From: Escherichia coli
GTDB lineage: Bacteria > Pseudomonadota > Gammaproteobacteria > Enterobacterales > Enterobacteriaceae
Length of the DNA stretch: 64,000 bases
Assembly: GCF_041248615.1 (NCBI RefSeq)
Contig: NZ_CP158426.1
Reading direction: 5' to 3' (one strand)
Shown in pieces: positions 47,186 to 47,721 of this stretch. The position numbers and the translations under genes were made by a program. How positions within the stretch are numbered: position 1 is the stretch's first letter; every line of letters starts with the position of its first letter. Below the pieces are notes generated by a model that saw only the letters and a list, made by a program, of their open reading frames with translations, did no database searches and was not told the DNA's origin.

Positions 47186-47328
47186 AAAAACACCCCTTCT
47201 TATGTTTGCTGTCGCGCAGGCTGGAAGCCCGAGGTTTTTTGTTAATGTGGCGGCAGAGGTAGCCGGACCTTGTAGATACTGCGAAATCTGGCACTGAATC
47301 GGTTAACTGTCCAGTCGACGGCCTTTTG

Positions 47329-47505
47329 TGTGATATCAGTCACATAAATATAGGGGGTAGAGAGGTAATTGACGTGATGCTCATCACAAAACTCTTGTGT
47401 AAAAAAGCAACAAGGCGGCGATTTTCGCTAAAAATGGCATTTAAATGTGAGTGATGTCACATTTTTGTTTTGATGGTTTGTTGAATTTTTGTGATCTGAA
47501 TCACA
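47329..47505. promoter_or_regulatory. Array of four near-consensus CRP sites (TGTGA-N6-TCACA) in the mtlA promoter
   Basis: tgtgatatcagtcaca 47329-47344; cgtgatgctcatcaca 47373-47388; tgtgagtgatgtcaca 47446-47461; tgtgatctgaatcaca 47490-47505. Confidence 0.7.
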
Positions 47506-47721
47506 AGATATTTTCTTACGGCGTTCACCTGATGTGATCTACAGCATGTTATGCCTTCGTCATGAAATCGTTATGTAACTAAGCAACTCATCACCTCTTA
47601 AAATTATTCTTTGGTGTTATGGCGAGAATCGCGAACCCGGATTATTGTCAAAATATCAGCCTGACTCCCTTCTGGCTGCCAGCCAAAAAACAACACCGAT
47701 AAACGTGAATCCGAGGCAGAT

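Follow-up and report, generated by a model that had tools for sequence, protein, structure and literature searches.

An intact K-12-type array of five CRP sites upstream of the mannitol operon in the mtlA–yibI divergent spacer of an Escherichia coli isolate

The DNA analysed here is a window of 64,000 nucleotides (64 kb) from E. coli, in which the mannitol operon mtlA-mtlD-mtlR on the minus strand faces away from yibI, which is followed by yibH according to the annotation. Gene annotation was taken from RefSeq record NZ_LT599825.1 (E. coli isolate NRZ14408), whose identity with the window was verified over positions 36001–64000. Adding 160000 to a window position gives the position in that record, and the window corresponds to its bases 160001–224000. 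Because mtlA starts at 47185 and yibI at 47722, positions 47186–47721 are exactly the divergent spacer. The 536-bp mtlA–yibI region described in the earlier note is therefore borne out by open reading frame limits and annotation alike.

47186–47721, no strand assigned: mtlA/yibI divergent intergenic region, 536 bp (open reading frames, RefSeq annotation, ungapped K-12 alignment)
45272–47185, minus strand: mtlA, mannitol PTS enzyme IICBA, 637 aa, intact (2 amino-acid differences from K-12; annotation)
44029–45177, minus strand: mtlD, mannitol-1-phosphate 5-dehydrogenase, 382 aa, intact (K-12 protein comparison; annotation)
43442–44029, minus strand: mtlR, repressor docking on paired CRP dimers, 195 aa (K-12 comparison; annotation; mechanism from the literature)
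47722–48084, plus strand: yibI (DUF3302), 120 aa, divergent neighbour and first gene of yibIH (open reading frames, K-12 comparison, annotation)

All three mtl genes are full length and free of internal stop codons. The cognate MtlR is encoded at the locus itself, is 100% identical to the K-12 protein over its 195 residues (0 differences) and is predicted to have bridging activity. At a threshold of at least 90% identity, the 536-bp spacer was found in 5,404 of 5,426 complete E. coli genomes. Within the operon, the mtlA–mtlD intergenic region (45178–45271) measures 94 bp as opposed to 229 bp in K-12, where the gap holds an additional REP/BIME-like insert of 135 bp that includes GCCGGATAAGGCG...GCATCCGGC.

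Directly upstream of the operon lies an array of CRP sites. The earlier note had reported four near-perfect TGTGA-N6-TCACA sites between 47329 and 47505 as well as a weaker fifth near 47530, and both statements are substantiated by a search for the consensus TGTGANNNNNNTCACA (TGTGA-N6-TCACA) across the whole 64-kb window. Perfect matches occur only at 47329–47344, 47446–47461 and 47490–47505; the fourth site is a 9/10 match with a single mismatch (CGTGA...TCACA) at 47373–47388, while the fifth corresponds to TGTGATCTACAGCATG. Numbered as in K-12 and listed from the promoter-proximal end, the sites are as follows.

47329–47344, no strand assigned: CRP5, TGTGATATCAGTCACA, 10/10 core, centre 47336.5 (published position −58.5), promoter-proximal, class I-like; 18.4 bits, rank 2
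47373–47388, no strand assigned: CRP4, CGTGATGCTCATCACA, 9/10 core, centre 47380.5 (−102.5); 15.4 bits, rank 3, 44 bp from CRP5
47446–47461, no strand assigned: CRP3, TGTGAGTGATGTCACA, 10/10 core, centre 47453.5 (−175.5); 19.6 bits, rank 1, 73 bp from CRP4
47490–47505, no strand assigned: CRP2, TGTGATCTGAATCACA, 10/10 core, centre 47497.5 (−219.5); 14.9–15.1 bits, rank 4
47533–47548, no strand assigned: CRP1, TGTGATCTACAGCATG, 7/10 core, centre 47540.5 (−262.5), weak; 11.4 bits, rank 8

From CRP5 to CRP1, core matches thus read 10/9/10/10/7 and the centres are 44, 73, 44 and 43 bp apart, so that three of these intervals fall within the range of 43–46 bp that recruits MtlR. The scores stem from a symmetrised 22-bp weight matrix built on the classical 18-sequence Stormo–Hartzell set; the matrix serves as a lead and is not a curated model. 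A scan of 63,979 positions, which the earlier note had proposed as a check with below-threshold scores counting against it, placed the four strong sites at ranks 1–4 with 14.9–19.6 bits, compared with a median of 14.5 bits for the training sites, and CRP1 at rank 8, so that the note's ground for rejection does not apply.

It is vanishingly improbable that the cluster consists of chance TGTGA/TCACA palindromes in AT-rich DNA or represents the non-functional remnant of a duplicated repeat. The spacer is indeed AT-rich (42% GC vs 50% in the whole window), and loose matches with two mismatches are found window-wide at chance level (29 observed vs 25 expected). The three perfect matches, however, compare with 0.04 ± 0.20 expected per 64 kb in dinucleotide shuffles, none of which reached three, and four of the six matches with at most one mismatch in the window are confined to 177 bp (47329–47505). 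Hits of at least 14.9 bits appear 0.2 times per 64 kb when the window is shuffled with dinucleotides preserved. A cluster of five hits scoring 11 bits or more inside 230 bp was attained in none of 200 window shuffles (maximum 2) and in none of 2000 shuffles of the spacer only, in which such hits averaged 0.08 and again numbered 2 at most. Furthermore, half-sites and spacings are unchanged across at least seven genera while adjoining bases vary, and published binding data favour function. The shuffles together with the cross-genus conservation therefore refute both versions of this explanation. An origin of the array by duplication of a unit was likewise discarded: the CRP sites themselves are the only repeats, and the stretches between them share no similarity.

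Outside the mtl region, the best matrix hit in the window (13.8 bits, AAGTGAGATATCTGTCAAATAA) is located at 59276–59297 in the divergent spacer between an Rhs N-terminal fragment and yibF. Three loose CRP-like matches lie within 170 bp at 17716–17881 inside an O-antigen ligase family gene carried by 691 of the 5,426 E. coli genomes; they were taken as probable chance occurrences within AT-rich coding DNA.

Between CRP5 and mtlA, a promoter, a Cra box and a leader can be assigned. The transcription start and the position −58.5 of the proximal site were calculated from published K-12 distances.

47308–47313, minus strand: −35 hexamer TGGACA of the putative mtlADR promoter (published site-to-start distances; invariant in 15/15 aligned sequences)
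47285–47293, minus strand: putative extended −10 element TGcCAGATT with hexamer CAGATT at 47290–47285 (read from the sequence; invariant across genera)
47293–47306, plus strand: Cra (FruR) box ACTGAATCGGTTAA, between −35 and −10 (perfect match to RSTGAAWCSNTHHW; conserved across genera)
47186–47278, minus strand: mtlA 5′ untranslated region, 93 nt, with Shine–Dalgarno sequence AAGGGG (several blocks conserved across genera)
47278, minus strand: putative mtlADR transcription start, ±2 nt (58.5 bp from the CRP5 centre at 47336.5, distance from PMC13421365; 7 nt after the −10 hexamer)

The −10 hexamer CAGATT matches the consensus at three of six positions, carries a TG extension and is separated from the −35 hexamer by a 17-bp spacer. 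Because of this 3/6 match, the mtlA promoter was missed by a consensus promoter scan of the spacer, whose sole match was an irrelevant one on the plus strand at the mtlA start; placement was instead based on the published distances and on cross-genus invariance. Such a weak consensus match is to be expected for an activator-dependent promoter. With multiple CRP sites, a weak −10 element (3/6) and a proximal site at −58.5, as given by the literature-derived start, the locus may be a class III promoter.

Positions 47293–47306 are identified as a Cra box by RSTGAAWCSNTHHW, which we take to be the Cra consensus. This motif occurs three times in the window vs 0.55 expected; the further perfect matches are found at 29007–29020 and, inside yibH, at 48551–48564. 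Cra is a reported repressor of mtl, and the location of the box between −35 and −10 fits this repression. As for the 93-nt leader, a structured RNA or riboswitch was rejected since the predicted fold is no better than that of shuffled sequences (z = −0.25), and RNAalifold on 14 sequences returned a covariation term of −0.25 kcal/mol with one compensatory pair. Between 46900 and 48000, no Rfam family, including an MtlS-like antisense sRNA, was matched at E-values up to 1. A terminator-like match on the plus strand (47307–47321) was dismissed as well, as it overlaps the −35 region, comprises five pairs and occurs at chance frequency.

Comparison with K-12 reveals an orthologous locus that corresponds base for base. 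The spacer aligns with MG1655 positions 3771745–3772280 over 536 of 536 columns without gaps or indels, at 97.8% identity, and the two regions share core matches, the 44/73/44/43 bp spacing, the −35 and −10 elements, the Cra box and the MtlR protein, while differing only by 12 point substitutions. All 50 core positions in the five CRP sites are spared, as are the −35, the −10 and the Cra box. Five substitutions lie in N6 centres, which are not contacted, namely those of CRP3, CRP4 and CRP5; another flanks CRP2 (47487), a further one is 4 bp away from the CRP4 core (47393), and the remaining five are on the yibI side of CRP1 (47564–47697); from CRP5 through the mtlA start codon, a single N6 base of CRP5 constitutes the only change. 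The matrix score of CRP2 amounts to 15.1 bits here vs 12.5 bits in K-12, and the substitutions in the N6 centres and the CRP2 flank could shift affinities slightly. The alignment to the K-12 mtlA promoter suggested in the earlier note thus leaves all cores unchanged. Given the K-12-identical layout and the intact mtlA, mtlD and mtlR genes, its view of the region as the known multi-CRP mtl promoter in intact form is correct: the sequence is the textbook E. coli mtl control region, which was already known.

Among seven E. coli strains, 25 spacer columns vary, with none in the 50 core positions and seven in the 30 N6 positions, as opposed to 18 of 456 positions outside N6 (hypergeometric P = 2e-4, calculated post hoc on these 7 strains). 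The N6 centres (47334–47339, 47378–47383, 47451–47456, 47495–47500 and 47538–47543) hence appear as polymorphism hot spots within the species. In E. coli GPEC1054 (NZ_CM142793.1; L128 3337-5975), an IS21-family element (istA/istB, ISSso4-like) has been inserted between CRP2 and CRP1, at the equivalent of about 47515–47521 and with an apparent 7-bp target duplication, which cuts off the weak CRP1 and yibI from the other four sites.

The function of such an array is known from K-12, where five CRP sites of mtlADR were described by Ramseier and Saier (1995, Microbiology 141:1901, as cited in PMC13421365). Lee et al. (NAR 2026, PMC13421365) place CRP5 to CRP1 at −58.5, −102.5, −175.5, −219.5 and −262.5, which gives the same spacings as in the window, and count 7/10 conserved bases for CRP1 and 10/10 for CRP2 and CRP3. 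Based on EMSA, site mutants and a spacing series, this study established that mtl transcription requires CRP and that strains mutated on the chromosome in CRP2, CRP4 or CRP5 neither express mtl nor grow on mannitol, while mutating CRP3 has mild consequences and CRP1, which is poorly occupied, can be dispensed with (PMC13421365). The insertion between CRP2 and CRP1 in GPEC1054 agrees with the dispensability of CRP1. MtlR is devoid of a DNA-binding domain and supershifts CRP–DNA complexes only when two occupied sites are 43–46 bp apart, as is the case for CRP1/2, CRP2/3 and CRP4/5 but not for CRP3/4 with its 73 bp (PMC13421365). The spacing of 43–44 bp is therefore itself functional because it recruits MtlR, a point absent from the earlier note, as is the dispensability of CRP1 in K-12. 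Consistently, a malK pair stretched from 34 to 44 bp gains MtlR binding, and the authors point out that the three spacers between sites share no similarity (PMC13421365). Mannitol transport dephosphorylates MtlA, which in this state sequesters MtlR at the membrane; on glucose, repression is restored because dephosphorylated HPr competes for the repressor (PMC13421365). Independent binding data are available, too: the yibI/mtlA spacer ranked second in abundance among the sequences cloned in CRP genomic SELEX, with 38 clones (Shimada 2011, PMC3105977), and CRP ChIP-seq in ETEC H10407 recorded two peaks here, with 16-mers for CRP2 and CRP1 identical to those of the window and a K-12-type version of CRP5 also listed in the table (PMC4287617).

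Taken together, we assign the locus as the mtlADR operator-promoter, a putative class III CRP-dependent control region with five cAMP–CRP sites upstream of a weak sigma-70 promoter, with a probability of roughly 0.94. For this assignment, the sites, their scores and exact spacing, the positional identity with K-12, the conservation and the intactness of mtlADR were obtained here, while CRP binding, the requirement for individual sites and the MtlR mechanism are taken from the published K-12 work. On the strength of the shared sequence, the present isolate would be expected to behave as K-12. At high cAMP levels, CRP dimers would occupy CRP5, CRP4, CRP3 and CRP2, with CRP5 at about −58.5 probably recruiting RNA polymerase directly and the upstream sites, which would also be required, probably fulfilling an architectural role. 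Without mannitol, an MtlR dimer may bridge CRP dimers 43–46 bp apart, i.e. the pairs CRP4/5 and CRP2/3 with CRP1/2 as an alternative, and thereby bring about repression. In the presence of mannitol, dephosphorylated MtlA would then retain MtlR at the membrane so that repression is lifted, and on glucose, dephosphorylated HPr would release MtlR from MtlA and repression would return. The Cra box between −35 and −10 could add a further layer of repression. With its five-site array, promoter, Cra box, mtlADR operon and identical MtlR, the isolate possesses a complete K-12-like mannitol module, and both catabolite control and induction by mannitol should therefore work as in K-12. Beyond correct annotation, the importance of this result is small.

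A modest addition comes from comparative analysis. GTDB species representatives, one genome per species, were scanned for two perfect sites 36–56 bp apart, which yielded at least 120 loci; selected on one perfect pair, these form a sample and not a census. Among the matches listed and with tandem-repeat loci removed, 44 bp is the only enriched spacing (18 pairs vs about 4–5 per other spacing), and 16 of these 18 pairs directly precede a homologue of mtlA; the 15 genomes concerned comprise 13 Enterobacteriaceae, one Orbaceae and one Actinobacillus. An additional, artefactual peak at 46 bp, produced by 23-bp tandem repeats of a single Tannerella MAG, was removed. All 13 Enterobacteriaceae sampled, among them Enterobacter, Klebsiella, Citrobacter, Superficieibacter, Pluralibacter, Pseudescherichia and two unclassified MAGs, exhibit the 44/73/44 bp layout, the remainder of the array not having been selected by the search pattern. 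The 43-bp interval to CRP1 is kept wherever CRP1 scores at least 9 bits, which applies to 7 of the 13, and most of the 13 retain the right half-site GATCACA of CRP1. In the cross-genus alignment, the N6 centres are free to vary, but the half-sites, the −35, TGc-CAGATT, the Cra box and the Shine–Dalgarno region show no change. It is hence the full 44/73/44 (+43) bp geometry, and not one pair, that is fixed across the sampled Enterobacteriaceae, and 44 bp as the only enriched perfect-pair spacing in this sample provides independent support for the 2026 model in which MtlR recognizes spacing and not sequence.

Outside the Enterobacteriaceae, site number and the longer spacings differ from the E. 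coli array: the Orbaceae genome has two sites, and the Actinobacillus genome displays spacings of 40 and 44 bp. The mtl operators of Salmonella enterica and Vibrio resemble that of E. coli in having neighbouring CRP pairs 43–44 bp apart upstream of mtlA (PMC13421365), and in both S. enterica (PMC13421365) and V. cholerae (PMC13421365; PMC6597380) MtlR forms ternary complexes with CRP and DNA. V. cholerae, in contrast, possesses the antisense sRNA MtlS, whereas no Rfam family matches the E. coli region. A related principle is found in CytR–CRP systems such as deoP2, where a repressor also contacts two DNA-bound CRP dimers at tandem sites and thereby turns an activator array into a platform for repression; CytR, however, itself binds DNA between the CRP sites, whereas MtlR reads only the geometry of 43–46 bp. 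In malK/malE, a class III system, several CRP sites in a divergent spacer likewise give rise to a higher-order nucleoprotein complex, but its CRP2 and CRP3 are 34 bp apart, MtlR is recruited only if this distance is stretched to 44 bp, and the co-activator MalT is needed. The genome scan for site pairs also yielded a further fixed arrangement in Pasteurellaceae (Rodentibacter, Haemophilus and Aggregatibacter), in which pairs of perfect CRP-type sites are 51–52 bp apart and enclose a conserved spacer motif, TGAGCGAATGCGAAAAT.

Pasteurellaceae pairs with 51–52 bp spacing: L003:3836-3903
L013:6415-6482
L016:2588-2655
L024:2027-2094
L060:4447-4513
L083:6465-6532

The same cross-genus alignment exhibits conserved blocks between the CRP sites of the mtl array.

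47352–47358, minus strand: ACCCCCT, in the CRP4–CRP5 spacer
47397–47412, minus strand: TGTnnnTTTTTTACAC (TGTnnnT6-7ACAC, T-tract), in the 73-bp CRP3–CRP4 gap
47477–47482, minus strand: AACAAA, in the CRP2–CRP3 spacer

In the 13 Enterobacteriaceae, which span at least seven genera, these blocks are nearly invariant at fixed positions, which does not hold for the surrounding spacer bases; the flank AAATAT (47508–47513) is conserved as well. Conceivably, spacing is not the sole determinant, and AACAAA, TGTnnnT6-7ACAC and ACCCCCT are extra functional elements for repression or activation, such as a Fis site, intrinsic bends or contact points of MtlR or another protein, a possibility that we consider less likely than not. 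In its favour, a Fis site has been reported for the mtl region without a stated position, TGTnnnTTTTTTACAC could possibly be such a site or a bend, and within E. coli the positions outside N6 vary less than those in N6. Yet, an arbitrary 44-bp insert suffices for MtlR binding on the malK scaffold as judged by EMSA (PMC13421365), the conservation of the blocks could reflect overlapping unrelated signals, and the genomes were sampled via a pattern requiring one perfect pair. The three blocks and the excess of N6 polymorphism suggest undescribed elements. A broader formulation, according to which the spacing-only model may be incomplete owing to such elements (a Fis site or bend, protein contacts, tuning of affinity through N6), perhaps along with co-regulation of yibIH, appears somewhat more doubtful still. 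The conserved blocks, the N6 variation and the GPEC1054 insertion weakly favour the view that more than spacing is under constraint.

As the sites are situated between two divergent genes, CRP1 and CRP2 might also, or even mainly, regulate the yibIH operon, for which a candidate promoter can be proposed. The ETEC ChIP-seq study assigns the CRP2/CRP1 peak to yibI (PMC4287617), and both genes are downstream of the bound sequence in the SELEX data (Shimada 2011, PMC3105977). RpoD genomic SELEX detected a holoenzyme peak in the spacer, with a predicted promoter TCTACA-19-TACAAT that fits the direction of yibI; its elements map to 47538–47543 and 47563–47568, and the −35 overlaps CRP1. In addition, mtl does not need CRP1, but most Enterobacteriaceae retain its right half-site. 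On the other hand, the consensus promoter scan gave no promoter in the yibI direction in the spacer, and the candidate −10 (47563–47568) is polymorphic, reading TACAAT in K-12 but TGAAAT here. Moreover, CRP2 is essential for mtl itself, one strain tolerates the IS21 insertion between CRP2 and CRP1, and conservation in the cross-genus alignment is lost beyond CRP1. We thus regard control of yibIH by these two sites as unlikely and retain the assignment of the array to mtlADR. With regard to the candidate −10 element, TACAAT is present in K-12 and most strains, while TGAAAT is shared with LF82 and TAAAAT is found in MS8324.

The DNA on either side of the mannitol locus carries further elements. 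Downstream of yibH, an Rhs element extends from 49681 to 59203 in three pseudogene pieces, broken by ISEc12 (IS21-family) and IS1397 (IS3-family), and genes for an Imm57-family immunity protein and a small hypothetical protein are annotated at its tip. On the other side, between lldP and yibL, which are about 370 bp apart in K-12, positions 36968–42014 are occupied by a YadA-like trimeric autotransporter gene of 4.3 kb together with a DUF3251 gene; strain W13-16 has a longer version of the adhesin gene (5.3 kb) and an internal stop in its DUF3251 gene.
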